A stretch of 38,273 nucleotides of DNA. Origin: a virus. Lineage: Duplodnaviria; Heunggongvirae; Uroviricota; Caudoviricetes. The notes below the pieces were generated by a model that saw only the letters and a program-made list of their open reading frames with translations, was not told the origin of the DNA and did no database searches. The position numbers and the translations under genes were made by a program. Below are positions 7,951-37,943 of this stretch, one piece after another. Where the stretch lies: the IMG/VR virus record IMGVR_UViG_2639762987_000013, positions 1 to 38,273 of that record. The stretch is one strand, 5' to 3'. Positions within the stretch are counted from its first letter, which is position 1, and every line of letters starts with the position of its first letter.

Positions 7951-8035
7951 AATACTGTAGGTATTTTATTGTGTAAATACCCAAGGTATTTATTTTTGGT
8001 GAAATAATGATAAGCAAATGAATACAAAGGATATT
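7951..8035. promoter_or_regulatory. OL/pL region: three AATAC-N5-GTATT-type operator half-site pairs (7951-7965, 7976-7990, 8021-8035)
   Basis: Dyad-symmetric 15-bp sites matching those upstream of cro; exact -10/-35 not assigned. Confidence 0.5.
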
Positions 8036-8121
8036 TATTTTTTCGGTGTCTGCTTGTTCAGTGCTTTTTATGCGGGATATGTGAAGTGGATCCCGATAGC
8101 TATTGCTGCCGGGATTATGAG

Positions 8122-8511
8122 TTAGTCAGCGAAGGTTAAGACGAGAATTACCTTAATGATGTCTGCTACAACAGACACGGCCATAGATAAACCAAAGACG
8201 ATCCAAGCCATAGAGATGTCTTCACTACCATCGTATAGAGTTCCGTAATCACTGGTGTAAGGCGTAAATGTCGCGCCTTGATACAACAGGTATAAGCTTG
8301 AACCATAGAGGATAAATGCAGATATCCCTTGTATTGCTATGATCACTAGAATCATGAAACGAGCTGATCTATGCGCCCAAGCCTGGCTTATTTTTTCTGA
8401 TAGAGATTTCGCAATAAAAGCATGCGCTAAGCCGTAAATTGTCGAGATTGCCAACATCCCAAAAAAGCTTGCTATAGCGGTTCCAACCATAATCGCCCCT
8501 TGCGTGATCAA
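8122..8511 (-). CDS. Polytopic (about 4 TM) membrane protein, 129 aa, translationally coupled to cI (rexAB-equivalent slot)
   Basis: ATG 8511-8509 overlaps cI stop 8510-8508; four hydrophobic segments; located between cI and OL/pL. Confidence 0.6.
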   Translation of the reverse strand: MITQGAIMVGTAIASFFGMLAISTIYGLAHAFIAKSLSEKISQAWAHRSARFMILVIIAIQGISAFILYGSSLYLLYQGATFTPYTSDYGTLYDGSEDISMAWIVFGLSMAVSVVADIIKVILVLTFAD

Positions 8512-17781: not shown

Positions 17782-18245
17782 ACAGAGTAACCGCGATTAT
17801 CTCCGCTTTGGTTATCTGCATCATCGTCTGCCTGTCATGGGCTGTTAATCATTACCGTGATAACGCCATCGCCTACAAAGAACAGCGTGATAAAAAAGTC
17901 AGTGAGCTGAAGCAGGCGACCGCCACCATTACTGACATGCAGCAACGCCAGCGTGCTGCTGATGCACTCGATGCTAAATACACGAAGGAGTTAGCTGATG
18001 CGAAAGCTGAAAATGATGCTCTTCGGCGCAATCTTGATAATGGTGGCAGGGTGCTCGTCAAAGGAAAATGCCCTGTGCCATCCTCAGCCGAAACCTCCGG
18101 CGCCTCCGGCATGGGCAATGATGCCACCGTCGAACTCTCTCCAGTTGCTGGACGAAACGTTCTCGGTGTCCGGGACGGAATTATCCGCGACCAAACAGCA
18201 CTGAGAACGCTTCAGGAATATATCAGGACGCAATGCCTTCGATGA
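17778..18245 (+). CDS. Rz: Rz i-spanin, about 155 aa
   Basis: [37 protein letters not shown]... matches lambda Rz; ATGA overlap with endolysin. Confidence 0.85.
17998..18204 (+). CDS. Rz1: Rz1 o-spanin lipoprotein embedded in Rz (+1 frame), 68 aa
   Basis: Lipobox ...IMVAGCSS, Pro-rich mature region; embedded architecture typical of lambda Rz/Rz1. Confidence 0.7.
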
Positions 18246-30731: not shown

Positions 30732-32138
30732 ATGGCTACTTGGCAAGGAACAAATGGCGGATTGTTGGCTGGTATCGGTGGTGTCAACTCAAACGCTCCG
30801 AGCGTAAATGACATCGGCAACACGCTTCAGCTTATCAGGCAGAACAATGATATTGAGCGTTCAGGCTCTAACAATGTTGGGCTGACAGCTTTGCAAGGTC
30901 TTTCTGGTATTGCGGGGGTGTTTCAGCAGGAAAAGCAGGCTCAGCGGCAGAAAGAATTTCAGCAGGCGTACGCTAATGCTTATGCGTCTGGTGATCGCGG
31001 TGCTTTGCGTAAGTTGGCTACTCAATATCCAGACCAGATTGAATCCGTTCGTAAAGGCATGGGATTCATTGATGAAGAGCAGCGTAATTCTATCGGCACC
31101 TTAGCGGCTGGCGCACGCCTTGCGTCATCGTCTCCAGAAGCAATGCAATCATGGCTGCAAAACAACGCCAAGGAACTGACTCGCGTCGGTGTTGACCCTA
31201 ACAGCGTTGCTCAGATGTATCAGCAGAATCCTTCAGGATTTGGTGAGTTTGTTGATCACCTTGGAATGGCTGCTCTTGGTCCGATTGATTACTTCAATGT
31301 TCAGGACAAGATGGCTGGTCGTGAGATTGACCGAGGCGGGCTGGCAGAGACAATCCGCAGCAATCAGGCTGGTGAAGCACTTCAGGCGAGAGGGCAAAAC
31401 CTTTCCTATCAGTCAGCAATGACTGGGCACAATATCGCAGCACAACGCTTGGCTCTGGATCAGCAAGAGTTCGGGTTTAAGATGCAGCAAGCGCAGGAAA
31501 AGGCTCAGCAGTTGATTAGCGAAGCACCTAAGCTGTCAGTAAACATGGAAAAAGGCATCGAGACGGCTGTAAACAATGCCACAGCATCATCAAACTCAGC
31601 CAATTCCATGAGTGCGCTTGCTCAACAGTTCAGAGCAGAAAAACCAACGACCGGCTTGTTCGGTAACGCACAGAACATGTTCGCAAAACTTACCGGAAGC
31701 GATACGACATTGCGTGATTTGCGCATTCGCCAAAATGCCCTTGTTAACAGTCAGGTTCTTAAATTCCTACCTCCCGGCCCAGCAACGGATAAAGACGTTG
31801 AGATCGTTCGACAGGGTGCGCCAACTGACATGGATAACCCTGAGACGGTCGCAAGATGGCTTGATGCAATGGCAAACCTTGAGCGACGAAACGCGCAGTT
31901 TAATGAGTTTAAAGCTGAGTGGATGAGCGCGAATGGCAACCCTGGACAATCGCGTAATGGCGGTCAGATATTGGGGTTGGATGTTAAAAAAGGTGAATCA
32001 TTGGGGAGTGCCGTTAAGCGGTATATGTCAATGAATACTGACGCAGCGCCAGCACAAGATTCGACACCTTCAGGAGAACCACGGAATCAGGTTGGATCAT
32101 ATACCTCAAAATCAGGCATTCAATTTACGGTGGAATGA
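30732..32138 (+). CDS. Ejection protein, gp20-type, 468 aa
   Basis: Size and position in P22-like order. Confidence 0.7.
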
Positions 32139-33982
32139 TGAAAGTAACTGCAAACGGTAAGACATTTACCTTTCCTGATGGTACGAGCACCGAAGATATT
32201 GGCACCGCCATTGATGAGTATTTTGCTGGTCAGGCTGTTCAGCAACAAACAGTTAATCAGGCCAATAATGCACCAACACGGGAAGAACCATCATTGATGC
32301 AACAAGCTGGCGATTGGCTCACTGGTGGTCAAAGTGCAGGGCAAATTGCGGAACAGGCTGGTCGTGGTCTGGTAAACATACCATTTGACGTATTGCAGGG
32401 CGGCGCAAGTCTGATTAATGCAATCAGCCAGGGGCTTGGTGGCCCCAAGGTTTTGGACGATGTCTATCGTCCAGTCGATCGACCAACAGACCCTTATGCG
32501 CAAGCTGGAGAAACAATTGGCGGGTATTTAGTTCCAGGAGTTGGAACGGCAGGAAGCATGGCTATTGGATCACTGGCAGAGGCCGCAAATCAGAAAGGCG
32601 ATTTCGCACAAAATGCAGCTAAAAATGCCGGAGTTAACCTTGCCGCTCAGGGGGTTCTTTCCGCAGCAGCAAAGGGAATAGGGCGTGGAATAACGGCTAT
32701 AAAAGGTGATATTGCGCCAGAAGTGGCGAAGAAAATTGCCACATCAGAATCGATGGGCGTGACACCAATGACATCTGATGTTATCCCGCCGAAAAATGCT
32801 TTCACTCGCGGCCTAACTCAGGATGCCGAGGGGGCTTTGCTCGGGACAGGCTCAAAGCGAGCGGAGCAATATGCAACGCGTAGTAAGCTGGTAAGTAATT
32901 ATTTTGACCGTTTTGGTGAGTACAACCCTGATGATGTGGTGAAATCTCTTACCACCACGTTAAGGGGGCGGAAGGATGCCGCTGGCGCTGTTATCAATGA
33001 CGTCACCAATAAAATGGGTAATGCCGCAGTTGATACCACAAATACCATGAATGCTCTGAATACAGCGATCGCAAGACAGGAACGGCTTGGGACGTCTGCC
33101 AATCAAAGCCTGCTTACATCCTTGCGTAACCTACGTGAAGAATTAGCAAACCCTGCAACTGATTTGGATGTTACGTTTGATCTCTTGCGTCAGCACAGAA
33201 CAGCATTTAGATCTAATGTTCAGGGAGATGCTATGGTCTTCCCAAACCAGGCAAAAGCAGCTACCAATATGGTAGAGAATGCAATGTCAAAAGATCTTCG
33301 TAACGCAGTTGCAAAAAACCTCGGTGCATCAGACGCAGCAAAATACCTTAAAGCAAATTCCGATTATGCAAACGTTTATAATAAGGTGCTTAATAAAAAC
33401 ATTGCTAACAAGCTCAACAAGGCAAGCAGTGAAGCCAGTCCTGAACTTATAAATACCGTTGTATTAAGCAGAAAACCATCTGACGTGAAACGAATCTGGA
33501 GCGCATTGGATAATAAAGGGAAAGATGCTATGCGTGCAGCTTATGTCAGCAAAATAGCGGAAAAGGCCGGTGACTCTCCAGCCAAGTTCATCACTGAAGT
33601 TAATAAGCTGAAATCTCAGTCAGGCGGTGAAATTTACAACACTATTTTTTCTGGAAAGCACATGAAAGAGCTTGATTCTCTTCATGAAGTTCTACAGCAA
33701 ACAGCAAGGTCAGACACCGCAAATGTAGTAACTCAGACGGGGCAATCGCAAGCCAACAGGATAAGGACGATTGGCGCAACTGCGACTCTTGGCGTATCAA
33801 TGGGGCTTGAGGCTGGTTTCGGTGCAATGATGCGCTTGTATGAGTCAAAAGCAGCAAGGAATGCTCTCTTACGTTTGGCAAACACCAAAGCAGGAACACC
33901 AGCCTATGAAAGAGCGCTAAATAATGCTGCAAATGCGATACGCCCTATACTTTCAAGCCAAATTACAGCAGAACAGCAATAA
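32135..33982 (+). CDS. Ejection protein, gp16-type, 615 aa
   Basis: Size and position in P22-like order; ATGA overlap with gp20. Confidence 0.7.
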
Positions 33983-33995
33983 AAATAAGATATAA

Positions 33996-34481
33996 CTATC
34001 TGATATTACTGCTACTGTTGCATGTTACCGTGTTTCCAAATCCTGAATTGCAGTTTGTATATGTGTCAACGCGTGTTGGGTAAGGTTGAGTTATAACAGG
34101 CTGGCGCGCTTTTTGCTCGATCGCTTGCATTGTGTTTACAGCCTGATAATTCAATAAAGCCTGCTGGAATGCTTGGCTTTGTGCTATTTGTTGTGCTTGT
34201 TCTTGGCTTTGTAATTGAACATAAAGATTCTGAAGTTCAAGTCTTGCCTGTGTGTCACTTATCTTGCCTTCATCGACACCTTGCCCGAGCATCTTCGCAG
34301 CAAGGACATACAGCTTAGGTGTTGGTGCTGATGCCATGCGAGAGTCGTTCTTCAAGCTGGCATCAAGGCAATTAGCCATATCGCTAAGCTTTGGATAGCG
34401 TTGCTCGCAACTTGCCTGATAGTCGCTTACTTTTGCGCACCCAGCCAGCAGAAGCGGGATAATTAACAGTGATTTTTTCAT
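33996..34481 (-). CDS. Predicted lipoprotein (signal peptide MKKSLLIIPLLLAGC, lipobox LAGC; Gln-rich helical region; Cys-containing C-terminus), 161 aa
   Basis: ATG 34481 with AAGGAG RBS; lipobox read from sequence; antisense to the late operon, in the sieA/immI slot. Confidence 0.6.
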   Translation of the reverse strand: MKKSLLIIPLLLAGCAKVSDYQASCEQRYPKLSDMANCLDASLKNDSRMASAPTPKLYVLAAKMLGQGVDEGKISDTQARLELQNLYVQLQSQEQAQQIAQSQAFQQALLNYQAVNTMQAIEQKARQPVITQPYPTRVDTYTNCNSGFGNTVTCNSSSNIR

Positions 34482-34515
34482 ATAATTAACTCTCCTTAGT
34501 TTTGCGCAGGATACC

Positions 34516-34881
34516 ATGAAAAAAGTTAACATTGGAAACGTACCAAAGATGCTCGTTCCGCTCTTTGAGAGCGGTACAATTGTGTTTTGTAGAGACTTTC
34601 CAGAATGGCAACGCCTGCATCAAAAACTTGGCGTTGACGTGCATGACTCGGACGCCAACGGAGCGTCTCATACAATGAGTAGCGAGAATGGTGTTTTGCA
34701 TGTGATAGGCGTGTTCAATGGCAAACTATCTACTATTGCCCATGAGTGCGCTCACATGGCATTCGATATCTGCTCAAGGGTAGGTGTTGATGTTGAACCA
34801 GGAAGAGCCAACGAGACTTACTGCTACTTAATGAGCAGGCTTGTTGAGTTCTGCGAGCGACATATCAAAAAGCCGGAGTGA
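34516..34881 (+). CDS. Small HExxH-motif protein (IAHECAHMAFDI), possible minimal zinc metallopeptidase, 121 aa
   Basis: HEXXH motif read from translation; stop lies in a bidirectional terminator hairpin (34871-34888). Confidence 0.5.
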   Translation: MKKVNIGNVPKMLVPLFESGTIVFCRDFPEWQRLHQKLGVDVHDSDANGASHTMSSENGVLHVIGVFNGKLSTIAHECAHMAFDICSRVGVDVEPGRANETYCYLMSRLVEFCERHIKKPE

Positions 34882-34888
34882 CCCGGCT
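34871..34888. terminator. Bidirectional intrinsic terminator between convergent genes (AGCCGG-loop-CCGGCT with T-tracts on both strands)
   Basis: Read from sequence. Confidence 0.55.
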
Positions 34889-34894
34889 TGATTA

Positions 34895-35074
34895 TTACTT
34901 TTTGCTGTCTGGAGTTCGCTTATCCAATACCCAGCCATGACCTGGCTTTGTTGTTGGTGGAAGCCTTTCGTTGTCCTTGACGGTTGCAAAATTGTCTTTC
35001 TTACCGCCGCGTGGGCCAACTTCTTGGTATATTCCGCCGTTTTTTCCTGTGTTTTCACCTGGTTTTTTCGCCAT
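34895..35074 (-). CDS. YjzC-like small protein, 59 aa (MAKKPGENTGKNGGIYQEVGPRGG...LPPTTKPGHGW...)
   Basis: Pattern KPGE...G.Y.E.G..G.......V..GE.LPPTT...W resembles YjzC-like family (from memory); GAGG RBS before ATG 35074; candidate sigma70 promoter (TTGACT/17 bp/AATATT) at 35111-35139 on minus strand. Confidence 0.45.
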   Translation of the reverse strand: MAKKPGENTGKNGGIYQEVGPRGGKKDNFATVKDNERLPPTTKPGHGWVLDKRTPDSKK

Positions 35075-35147
35075 GATATACCTCAACATACACCCGTTAT
35101 TGGGCGATTAAATATTGATCTCATTTTATAAGTAGTCAATATGGCCC

Positions 35148-35172
35148 AGGTAAATGCAAAAATTAACCCACC
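35148..35172. terminator. Hairpin terminator downstream of mnt (AACCCACC-TTCA-GGTGGGTT + T-tract)
   Basis: Read from sequence. Confidence 0.5.
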
Positions 35173-35173
35173 T

Positions 35174-35425
35174 TCAGGTGGGTTTTTTGTACAAATCCTT
35201 CAGCGTATCAAACACCATCTTCTTAACAAGCTCTGACTGCTCATCAGCGATGCGTTCCGCATCGTCTCGATAGCCTGAAATTTTGGATGGCTTTGATACA
35301 GCATCAGTCACTATCTGAACTAATTCTGAATTAAGAGAGCGGCCATTGGATTTGGCTCGCTGTTTTAGTTTTTCCTTTAATTCGTAAGGTAGCCGCAGAT
35401 TAAATTGCGGGTCATCTCTTCCCAT
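35174..35425 (-). CDS. mnt: Mnt repressor (Arc/MetJ ribbon-helix-helix), 83 aa
   Basis: MGRDDPQFNLRLPYELKEKLK.RA..NGRS.NSEL.QIV.DA.SKPS...GYR.DAERIADEQSELVKKMVFDTLKDLYKK matches recalled P22 Mnt. Confidence 0.85.
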   Translation of the reverse strand: MGRDDPQFNLRLPYELKEKLKQRAKSNGRSLNSELVQIVTDAVSKPSKISGYRDDAERIADEQSELVKKMVFDTLKDLYKKPT

Positions 35426-35572: not shown

Positions 35573-37564
35573 ATGACAGACATTACAGCCAATGTTGTAG
35601 TGAGCATGCCTTCGCAACTCTTCACTATGGCGCGTTCTTTTAAAGCCGTAGCTAATGGCAAAATTTATATCGGTAAAATTGACACTGACCCGGTAAATCC
35701 TGATAACCAGATTCAGGTCTATGTTGAGAACGAAGATGGTTCTCACGTTCCTGTTGCACAGCCAATCGTCATCAATGCCGCTGGGTATCCAGTATATAAC
35801 GGACAGATTGCCAAATTCGTAACTGTGCAAGGCCATTCTATGGCTGTTTATGATGCATGTGGTGCGCAGCAGTTCTATTTTCCAAATGTGCTGAAGTATG
35901 ACCCGGATCAGTTAAGGCAGGAGTTAGCAAGTTCAGGTGATGATCTTGGAGATGCATTAATAGCAGTAAAACAACCATTCACCTTGTCAATAAGAAGGAC
36001 GCAGCATCAAAAAAATGCCGAGCACATTAGTGTTAGTGATTTTGGTGCAAAAGGAGACGGCATAACAGATGATACTGTAGCAATTCAAAATGCTATTAAT
36101 GCAGTACCAGAAGGGGCTATACTTGGATTTTATGGTGGTGAATTTGTTTTTGATAAGGTTGAATTGCTTAAGCCAATAACATTGGTTGGTGATGCAACGT
36201 TAATTCACAACGGATTTAGAATAAAATCTAGCAGAATACGATCACTTTTATCTGGTGTTCAGAAATGCAAGGATTACTCCGAGTCTTCAAGAGCATTTTA
36301 TTGCTATGCAAATGAAGACCAAAGAGATTATGACGATATTCAGATTTTGTTTAATAGATTTGAAGGTTTCTTTTACTCTACGGCATTTGTTGCAAAAAAC
36401 TATTATTTGGAGAATGACCCTAATTCAAGAACTGTCAAAAATACAAAAGTAATAGGATGTACATCAGTTGCTCCTGATTCTGTAAATGCCGGTCATTTTC
36501 AACATATAGGCGTTACAAATGCTGAAACATCACATAACTCAACTTATGGCGGACAAAATGCAACATCATACAACTTCATTAACCAGAATGGATTTGTAAG
36601 GATTATAGGAAATTATGACCATAACAATAGCTATGGTTCATGTGAGCTTGAGAACTCAATGGTGAGTAACTCAGTCATATCATGTAATACGTTTTCGTCA
36701 TATTTATGGGTGGATGATACAAGTAATGTTACTATTTCTGGAAATACAGTTTCATCAAGGATCAAAGTAACATCGCAAACTGACGATGTTCATAATATAA
36801 CCATATCAGCAAATACCACAAAACGGATTACTATAGAGCAATTTGGAGAATCTCCGACAGGTCTGGTATATGGTGCATTAATTTCCTGTAACACTATTAC
36901 TGGCGACAGTGATGGAAGTTCAGACATTTTATGTACGTCACTTGTTACAGGTGAAATTTCATCAAATTATTGTCATGGATCAGAAAAAAATATATCAATT
37001 GTCCGCCTGGATTCTTCTGATATAACTGTTAGAAACAATAAAGGAAACAAAGGATTACTTACAATAAGTAACGATGGTGGGAGGATAATTGAATATGGCA
37101 ATGATTCTATGGTTCTGTCTGGAAGCATAGATAGCAGACATATACATAATTTATTACAACCAGACACATCGTATTTAGATCTACCGGGGAAATATCTGCA
37201 CGGAACTAAATATACTGGCAGTATCCCCCCCGGTTCCACAGGAACTGTATCACTTCAAATACCATCAGGGGCAAGCCTTGTTTTCAGGGGTGTTTCTATA
37301 TGGGTTCTAATTAGAGATGTTAGCAATAACAATATATCGTCATTCAGAATTGATGGTTCATATAGAGTTGTTGGTGGAAGTGTTGGTCTTAGTTTTGCTG
37401 ATGCTTATTCGAAACTCGGGGTGGATGCAAACTCTATAACAGTGTCAAACAATAACAGCACTTCTGACAATATCAGCATAGCAATTAAAAACACAGATTC
37501 ATCAAAAACCCTTCAGGTTACTGTTATGCCGGAGGTTTCAAGCAGGTTAGGTATTGAGGAATAG
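35573..37564 (+). CDS. Tailspike: P22-type N-terminal head-binding domain fused to a distinct right-handed beta-helix (pectate-lyase-like) receptor-binding domain, 663 aa
   Basis: First ~110 aa ([11 protein letters not shown]...[33 protein letters not shown]......INAAG..VYNGQ......VQGHSMA.YDA.G.Q.....NVLKYDPDQ) match P22 gp9; remainder starts with beta-helix motif [22 protein letters not shown] and is Asn/Ser/Thr-rich. Confidence 0.9.
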
Positions 37565-37640: not shown

Positions 37641-37943
37641 ATGATGAATATAGAAGTTGATATAACACCAATTCTTCACGCACTTTGCGCTGTTGTCGCA
37701 CAAGTTCTGGTTGGTCTTTTTACCGGAAACTGGGCTTACGGTGCGATAGCCGGTTGTACGTTCTTCATTGCGCGTGAACACACCCAGGCAGAATATCGCT
37801 GGATTGAAATGTTCGGGCATGGCAAGCGTATGAATATGCCGTGGTGGGGTGGTTTTGATCCACGCGTGTGGGATGTAGGAAGCCTTATGGATTTTTCTTT
37901 CCCAATTATCGGATGCTTATTGGTATGGATTCTTGCATCGTAG
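37641..37943 (+). CDS. Small two-TM membrane protein, 100 aa, terminator-flanked
   Basis: Two hydrophobic segments; Trp-rich loop; terminators on both sides (37593-37620 and 38032-38055). Confidence 0.5.
   Translation: MMNIEVDITPILHALCAVVAQVLVGLFTGNWAYGAIAGCTFFIAREHTQAEYRWIEMFGHGKRMNMPWWGGFDPRVWDVGSLMDFSFPIIGCLLVWILAS

Follow-up and report, generated by a model that had tools for sequence, protein, structure and literature searches.

What is the function of a predicted lipoprotein gene that runs antisense to the ejection-protein operon of a P22-like phage and stops just short of it? The question is raised by the IMG/VR virus record IMGVR_UViG_2639762987_000013, of which the stretch analyzed here (positions 1 to 38,273; 38,273 nucleotides, hereafter the window) represents nearly the whole of a P22-like (Lederbergvirus) genome with the gene order terminase, portal, coat, gp4, gp10, gp26, ejection genes 7, 20 and 16, mnt and tailspike. 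The gene in question, a member of the family phrog_6067, lies on the minus strand at 33996..34481 and comprises 161 codons plus a stop codon (33996..33998). A previous sequence-only reading of this DNA had proposed an envelope lipoprotein and, by comparison with Cor, Llp and Bor, a receptor-blocking superinfection-exclusion or virulence factor. The analyses below place the gene in the position of the P22 exclusion gene sieA, and the protein may be an exclusion factor of a different kind.

The lipoprotein gene occupies the sieA slot

In phage P22 (NC_002371), gene 16 is followed directly, after 22 bp, by sieA on the other strand; the sieA promoter, PsieA, is annotated 31-61 nt upstream of the sieA start, and orf59a and mnt come next. 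In the window, the convergent neighbor of the lipoprotein gene is the gene 16 homologue (ejection/DNA-transfer protein; 32135..33982, plus strand; phrog_770, E = 7.5e-280), and 34492..35425, which flanks the swapped cassette upstream, on the mnt side, shows 91.8% identity to P22 13837..14770, in a block that includes the PsieA region, a 121-aa open reading frame (ORF) that is unannotated in P22, orf59a and mnt. Approaching the lipoprotein gene, the window and P22 differ by a single mismatch in the 128 nt that end with CTAAGGAG and are unrelated directly after it: P22 runs on into sieA, and in the window AGTTAATTAT-ATG and the lipoprotein gene follow. The type-B sieA of the E. coli prophage HS1 (L112:30463-31101) is convergent with gene 16 as well, 21 bp separating the two, and has in front of it the CAAAACTAAGGAG leader of P22 sieA and the lipoprotein gene; three unrelated ORFs are therefore found behind one junction. 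This leader, with its Shine-Dalgarno sequence, spans 34492..34504 (minus strand) in the window and marks the point where one ORF gives way to the other. As identity ends at the Shine-Dalgarno sequence, the alignment puts the lipoprotein ORF in the sieA position behind the same promoter region, with sieA replaced exactly at the ribosome-binding site.

The promoter region (34508..34546, minus strand), assigned from the P22 annotation, coordinate mapping and alignment and presumed to be active, takes in the PsieA equivalent (34516..34546, minus strand; P22 annotation and coordinate mapping) and an extended -10-like element, TGGTATCCT (34508..34516, minus strand), that is kept even where the sequence further upstream differs. 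In P22, 85 bp of upstream sequence together with sieA, in a single chromosomal copy, are enough for exclusion (Leavitt et al., PMC10883804), and the low-level transcription of sieA reported for the lysogen is raised on induction (PMC10883804). Because the promoter region is held in common and sieA is transcribed in lysogens, there is good reason to expect that the lipoprotein is expressed in lysogens. As regards a moron, an autonomous transcription unit within a prophage, 99% identity to the P22 PsieA region and the conserved TGnTATCCT element suggest a promoter of the gene's own, and consensus scanning called neither a promoter nor a terminator downstream.

The 13-bp spacer between the convergent stops (33983..33995) is as the sequence-only reading had described it, with gene 16 ending at 33982 and the lipoprotein stop codon beginning at 33996, and a scan for terminator-like hairpins found none within it. 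The abutment itself was rejected as significant, because the gap varies between near-identical genes (from 2 to 90 bp): it is 2, 9, 13, 14, 17-22 or 90 bp across related loci, and 22 bp for P22 sieA.

Distribution of the gene and mutual exclusivity with SieA

A tblastn search of 50,697 phage records found the lipoprotein gene in five phages, all of them P22-like (Gally, vB_EcoP-720R6, VSe13, MS2 LVA and Proteus phage Brookers), and relatives were found in IMG/VR (124) and in the protein database, there in 90 clusters from E. coli, Citrobacter, Serratia, Klebsiella aerogenes, Cronobacter, Yersinia, Pectobacterium, Morganella, Providencia and Tatumella. In 90 of 95 loci, from at least eight enterobacterial genera, a large convergent ORF of the gene 16 type has its end between -8 and +93 bp from the lipoprotein stop. 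The context is P22-like in the Serratia, Morganella, Yersinia, Klebsiella, Providencia, Tatumella and Proteus loci; the order gp7, gp20, gp16, lipoprotein, tailspike recurs in Serratia, Morganella, Yersinia and Klebsiella, and in Morganella and Yersinia the lipoprotein gene is the sole gene between gene 16 and the tailspike gene. Among the contexts examined, the close family (identity of at least ~50%) is confined to P22-like genomes at the sieA position.

Upstream of the gene, the leader AAAACTAAGGAG is present in 55 of the 95 loci and the extended -10-like element TGnTAT[C/G]CT in 52, even with unrelated sequence further upstream. The gene begins 17 bp after mnt in Brookers and 30 bp after mnt in a prophage of Serratia sp. 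14-2641 (L097), an adjacency that suggests an operon expressed in the lysogen. Two Morganella prophages (L011 and L002) are without mnt and keep GCTATATAATGATAAAAAATAAACAATTGTGAGGT, which is the 3' end of mnt in Brookers, 45 nt upstream of the lipoprotein start, with a perfect TATAAT.

In a census of 5,426 complete E. coli genomes, 186 carried the lipoprotein gene, at 189 places that were all chromosomal and annotated "hypothetical protein", compared with 35 genomes for the P22-type (type A) sieA, 21 for the HS1-type (type B) sieA and 923 for the P22-like gp10 marker; the copy in E. coli Ecol_881 is 100% identical to that of the window. No other known occupant of the sieA slot is as common in E. 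coli as the lipoprotein gene, which is found in about 20% of the P22-like prophages of complete E. coli genomes, three times the figure for both SieA types together, and, with ~189 of ~970 places, is absent from most of them. No type-A or type-B SieA was present in the ~100 lipoprotein loci, so that the lipoprotein and SieA are mutually exclusive.

The gene is not tied to the type of its ejection-protein neighbor, since the same lipoprotein (97-100% identical) stands beside gp16 proteins only 32-45% identical to that of the window; linkage to gp16 type, considered across gp16 identities of 32-100%, was accordingly rejected. The pairing of a near-identical lipoprotein with divergent gp16 types would fit a broad-specificity factor, which is what SieA is (PMC10883804). 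The gp16 neighbors range from 529 to 906 aa, and in one Klebsiella aerogenes locus (L016 8480..11200) a 906-aa gene 16 homologue has an SLT lytic-transglycosylase domain fused to the gp16 domain.

An intact lipoprotein gene (8001..8486) is also kept in a decayed P22-like prophage of Serratia marcescens (L008-L010), as expected of a gene that benefits the host. In this remnant gene 16 is truncated or missing, gp7 and gp20 are absent, a DNA polymerase A gene lies alongside, and Bro-N and the tailspike are kept; the lipoprotein sequence was read on 24 contigs, and the arrangement recurs.

Start codon, coding evidence and predicted structure of the lipoprotein

The program-made list of ORFs gives an extended form that begins with an ATG at 34532 (178 aa). 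The start used by the sequence-only reading, 34481, is to be preferred because the methionine at this position is the start in all 29 aligned homologues, an AAGGAG Shine-Dalgarno sequence (34492..34497) lies nine nt 5' of it, and the signal peptide begins there. Compared with homologues from seven other genera, a set that also took in one Proteus phage, the nonsynonymous divergence (pN) is 0.13-0.32 and the synonymous divergence (pS) is saturated at 0.76-0.95, and in six of the seven pairs the N-terminal domain has a lower pN than the C-terminal half. Taken together with the conserved lipobox, these values confirm that the gene is real and under purifying selection. Its GC content (44.7%, against 47.5% for the window) gave no signal of a foreign origin by base composition.

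The N-terminus, MKKSLLIIPLLLAGC, is a canonical lipoprotein signal (positively charged n-region, hydrophobic h-region, and a lipobox of the form [LVI][ASTVI][GAS]C inside the first ~35 residues), with a signal peptide (residues 1-14) and a Cys15 predicted to be lipid-modified (34437..34481, minus strand; from the sequence and alignment A1) that include the lipobox L-A-G-C (L12-A13-G14-C15; 34437..34448, minus strand). All 30 sequences have Cys15, and at least 90% of them have G14 and L12 (alignment A1). When all six frames of the window were scanned for a lipobox, only two ORFs of at least 60 aa were returned, the Rz1 spanin (17998..18204) and the lipoprotein. The earlier proposal of an LLAGC signal peptide thus holds at the level of sequence, and a lipoprotein processed by the Sec and signal peptidase II (SPase-II) route is predicted, the mature form being, at 147 aa, slightly longer than the "about 140 aa" first given. 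In Enterobacterales, Asp at position +2 is the signal for Lol avoidance, and lipoproteins are otherwise sorted to the outer membrane. The +2 residue here is Ala (CAKV), or Val in the Morganella and Providencia forms (CVAKV), with no Lol-avoidance Asp, and the lipoprotein is therefore expected at the outer membrane.

Beyond the signal peptide, its sole hydrophobic stretch, the protein is polar and Gln-rich and falls into three parts: an N-terminal helical domain (residues 16-97; 34191..34436, minus strand), delimited by AlphaFold2, invariant columns and pN; a Gln-rich helix with a Pro-containing linker (residues 98-135; 34077..34190, minus strand), the length of which varies in the wider family; and a C-terminal Cys-X9-Cys hairpin module (residues 136-161, with C144 and C154; 33999..34076, minus strand). 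The first of these is the most conserved portion and holds the majority of the invariant columns. The cysteines are at positions 15, 25, 38, 144 and 154; C25, C38 and C154 are invariant in alignment A1, the fourth Cys position is kept across the wider family, and C25 and C38 probably form a disulfide. AlphaFold2, run on the 30-sequence alignment, returned a mean predicted local distance difference test score (pLDDT) of 64, with a confident helical domain at residues 18-96 (pLDDT 80-90) and, at low confidence, a Gln-rich helix at residues 101-124 and a beta-hairpin containing C144 and C154 at residues 137-159. With nine of the 20 glutamines lying within residues 98-127, both the Gln-rich helical segment and the Cys-containing C-terminal domain of the sequence-only reading find their counterparts in the model.

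The last ~30 residues occur in two alternative forms in alignment A1, ending ...NCNSGFGNTVTCNSSSNIR and ...TTNCTTYGNQTRCQSY, which swap independently of the N-terminal domain: the protein of Serratia fonticola P0025 resembles that of the window to about residue 127 and then continues in the other form. The two forms constitute intragenic mosaicism and, judging from the alignment, are possibly a specificity module.

Homology searches and the wider family

The only PHROG match of the lipoprotein is to phrog_6067, over its full length (residues 1-161 of 161; E = 2.9e-109), a family listed with function unknown (PHROGs v4) and without annotation or structure. A Pfam scan at E <= 1 gave no match, Lambda_Bor (PF06291) included, NCBIfam and PADLOC scans gave none, a sequence-profile search of the PDB returned only noise (E ~0.9), no structural match was found in the PDB or BFVD, and a literature search found no paper on the gene. 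A divergent SieA was rejected, as BLASTP against P22 SieA produced no alignment at E <= 100; the FxRYPxEAxxFNK motif of SieA is absent from the sequence, and in place of the multi-pass inner-membrane character of SieA there is only one hydrophobic stretch, the cleavable signal. A spanin was rejected as well: the window has its own Rz1, and the lipoprotein has a mature length of 147 aa, is remote from the lysis genes and lacks a transmembrane segment at its C-terminus. Because it has no Pfam, NCBIfam, PADLOC, PDB or BFVD relative, the lipoprotein is, as far as these searches tell, not a member of the SieA, Cor, Llp or Bor families. The comparators Cor, Llp and Bor named in the sequence-only reading are therefore set aside as relatives, given that phrog_6067 is the only family matched, tblastn hits are only P22-like, and Pfam, the PDB and BFVD give nothing.

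A profile search over 1.84 billion cluster representatives (E <= 1e-3) widened the family to 239 representative clusters, whose members belong to no Pfam family. They have a common architecture: a lipobox, an N-terminal domain with two invariant cysteines, a variable linker and a C-terminal T-x-C-x3-G-x4-C hairpin. Searched with a profile of the distant relatives, viral contigs gave no match and metagenomes gave 14 loci, of which two were inspected in detail (L100 and L108), both chromosomal and from environmental Proteobacteria. The relative from Serratia sp. 14-2641 (L097 8001..8465; ~27% identity), which is carried by a P22-like prophage directly after mnt and converges on gene 16, has an SPase-I type signal (ASA|TS) and no lipobox Cys. 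It is predicted to be a soluble periplasmic version, and the existence of such a lipobox-free relative in the same slot suggests that it is the periplasm, rather than the lipid anchor, that matters for the family's site of action.

Genes neighboring the slot

The 121-aa ORF of the conserved block (34516..34881, plus strand) contains an HExxH motif (HECAH) and matches phrog_1365 (function unknown). The ORF overlaps the PsieA region, and its start and that of the lipoprotein gene, on opposite strands, are 34 nt apart. Its unannotated P22 counterpart (NC_002371 13861..14223) is 99% identical and, because all six nucleotide differences fall on third codon positions, the ORF is probably real, on the strand of the late operon. 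Between it and mnt, a 64-aa orf59a homologue (34895..35089, minus strand) is flanked by two GC-rich hairpins with T-runs on both strands (34870..34889 and 35165..35184) that look like bidirectional terminators. The mnt gene (35174..35425, minus strand) encodes Arc and Repressor_Mnt domains, and arc and ant are absent. The tailspike gene (35573..37564, plus strand) starts 147 nt from the mnt start, so that the divergent, Mnt-controlled promoter region faces it directly. Directly downstream of the tailspike gene, in the usual position of an O-antigen-modification or conversion gene, is a 100-aa predicted membrane protein (37641..37943, plus strand) with no Pfam match.

Discussion

The lipoprotein gene is an ordinary prophage accessory gene in a mosaic hot spot, and its family is the main, uncharacterized alternative to SieA in E. 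coli. The explanation that we favor, tentatively and at somewhat less than an even chance, is that the protein is a prophage superinfection-exclusion factor, a non-homologous replacement of SieA that would act in the periplasm at the step of DNA delivery. In the scheme that we infer from sequence and from analogy, leftward transcription from the PsieA promoter and leader would lead to synthesis of the lipoprotein in the lysogen; Sec and SPase-II would export it, and Lol would then sort it to the outer membrane, on its periplasmic side. Once processed, the protein would comprise a helical domain with a disulfide, a flexible linker rich in Gln and Pro, and a small C-terminal hairpin stapled by a disulfide. 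It would stop incoming phages, chiefly P22-like ones, after adsorption and in the periplasm, by interfering with the trans-envelope DNA-delivery conduit of gp7, gp20 and gp16 or with the docking of that conduit at the outer membrane, and so would act from the outer-membrane side, its counterpart SieA acting from the inner membrane. The earlier idea of a prophage exclusion or conversion factor is strengthened, because the gene is a cassette replacement of sieA behind PsieA and its leader. Receptor blocking becomes one possible mechanism among others, as the positional analogue, SieA, acts after adsorption, when it blocks DNA delivery (PMC10883804). A more specific proposal, that the family is a second, non-homologous class of P22-type exclusion acting on the ejection conduit or its docking and predominant over SieA in E. 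coli, with CAAAACTAAGGAG as the cassette-exchange junction and the C-terminal Cys hairpin as the specificity determinant, is possible but doubtful.

Several observations weigh against exclusion. No likeness in fold or sequence to any exclusion protein was found, and non-exclusion genes (orf59a and the immI genes) occupy the sieA slot in other P22-like phages. PsieA is itself described as "putative" in the literature, and a scan for consensus sigma-70 promoters called no site upstream of the lipoprotein gene. Two copies of the gene are present in three of the 186 E. coli genomes (e.g., NZ_CP076285.1), which points to a pair of P22-like prophages or remnants within a single cell; any homotypic exclusion is therefore not absolute. 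Finally, one of the chromosomal relatives lies between aat/ate and a TolC-RND pump (L100 6992..7378) and another adjoins gltX in a high-GC genome (L108 6683..7165), and from these neighborhoods it follows that the ancestral role of the family is not phage-specific.

These last relatives, which have the same N-terminal domain and hairpin and are among the 239 clusters, lend weight to a different explanation, that the protein is a lysogenic-conversion factor for host physiology which alters serum or complement resistance, envelope stress tolerance or adhesion, and resembles Bor, Iss and TraT in effect and not in ancestry. Retention of the gene in the decayed Serratia prophage, its wide occurrence in clinical and animal E. 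coli (one ST131 strain included) and the conservation of the N-terminal domain across genera, as for a conserved host partner, all accord with such a role. Against it, family members down to ~50% identity for which the context was examined, and one at ~27%, are found only at the sieA position of P22-like genomes, a restriction to one phage type that is not known for general virulence morons such as bor. The precise replacement of sieA behind its promoter and ribosome-binding site, the mutual exclusivity with SieA and the lack of a match to Lambda_Bor or any other Pfam family also speak against this explanation, and we regard a purely physiological role as unlikely, if a serious contender.

Masking of a receptor in the manner of Cor and Llp, by binding to the periplasmic side of an outer-membrane receptor and blocking adsorption or triggering, perhaps of heterologous phages, would suit the predicted topology, which is that of T5 Llp (an outer-membrane lipoprotein that faces the periplasm and contains one or more disulfides), and a C-terminal hairpin that is variable and swapped between relatives, as a specificity determinant might be. 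Candidate targets exist in OmpA and OmpC, the secondary receptors of the P22-like phage Sf6. Yet the primary receptor of P22-like phages is the O-antigen, and the extreme abundance of OmpA and OmpC would make them poor targets for stoichiometric masking by a protein made from a weak promoter. No likeness in sequence or fold was found, whether to Cor and Llp or to viral structures, solved or predicted; one relative in the slot has no lipid anchor; and the gene is not linked to tailspike type, the loci differing in their tailspikes although the N-terminus of the tailspike is conserved. Receptor masking is, on this evidence, improbable.

A role in the lytic cycle (protection of the infected cell or of progeny from re-adsorption or ejection into debris, modulation of lysis, or help to the phage's own ejection proteins) could draw on the up-regulation of P22 sieA on induction (PMC10883804) from the same promoter region and on the adjacency to the ejection-protein operon in nearly all loci, but is highly improbable for a gene that is antisense to the late operon, is shown to be dispensable by its absence from most P22-like phages (~189 of ~970 places in E. 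coli; five phage records), accompanies a Rz/Rz1 spanin pair that the window already has, has no link to a particular gp16 or gp20 type and is kept in a prophage remnant unable to grow lytically.

Of exclusion systems directed against the ejection-protein conduit of short-tailed phages, SieA is the only one characterized, and only about one third of sequenced P22-like phages carry it (PMC10883804). If the lipoprotein does exclude, it would offer a probe, soluble or anchored in the outer membrane and amenable to genetics, for the passage of gp7, gp20 and gp16 across the periplasm, would explain in part why lysogenic E. coli resist P22-like phages, with relevance to phage typing and therapy, and would show clearly that one gene can take over the function of an unrelated one at a defined recombination junction. 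Even if it does not, prophages of clinical E. coli very commonly encode this envelope protein.

Comparison with known systems

SieA, known as types A, B and C of P22-like prophages (PMC10883804), is the closest system by position. SieA and the lipoprotein share the slot between genes 16 and 9 and the orientation convergent on gene 16, P22 sieA has the promoter region and the CAAAACTAAGGAG leader in common with the lipoprotein gene, the sizes are alike (161 aa, against 164 and 212 aa for SieA), and both are confined to P22-like genomes of Enterobacterales. They differ in build: SieA is a multi-pass inner-membrane protein with the cytoplasmic motif FxRYPxEAxxFNK, whereas the lipoprotein has one cleavable lipoprotein signal and a predicted outer-membrane or periplasmic location.

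Lambda Bor/Iss and TraT, which confer serum resistance or surface exclusion, are prophage- or plasmid-borne outer-membrane lipoprotein morons expressed in the carrier state, and in this the window protein is similar. It differs from them in that it has no Pfam match at E <= 1, and in that the genes for Bor, Iss and TraT are not confined to one phage type.

Llp of T5 and Cor of phi80, N15 and HK022 are likewise small phage lipoproteins that are predicted or known to lie at the periplasmic face of the outer membrane. Both are exclusion lipoproteins that inactivate FhuA and are expressed from the prophage or early in infection, and T5 Llp contains a disulfide. Cor is cited as an exclusion lipoprotein in PMC11436027. 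The lipoprotein of the window is, in contrast, two to three times larger, with a three-part architecture, and comes from O-antigen-specific podophages rather than from FhuA-dependent siphophages.

Ltp of the Streptococcus phage TP-J34 differs in its Gram-positive host, in its repeated helix-turn-helix-like domains, in its target, a siphophage tape-measure protein, and in having no homology to the lipoprotein. It nonetheless provides a functional model for the mechanism favored here, as a membrane-anchored prophage lipoprotein that meets a DNA-delivery protein outside the cytoplasm and, by binding the tape-measure protein, blocks DNA injection (PMC3952083; cited in PMC10883804).

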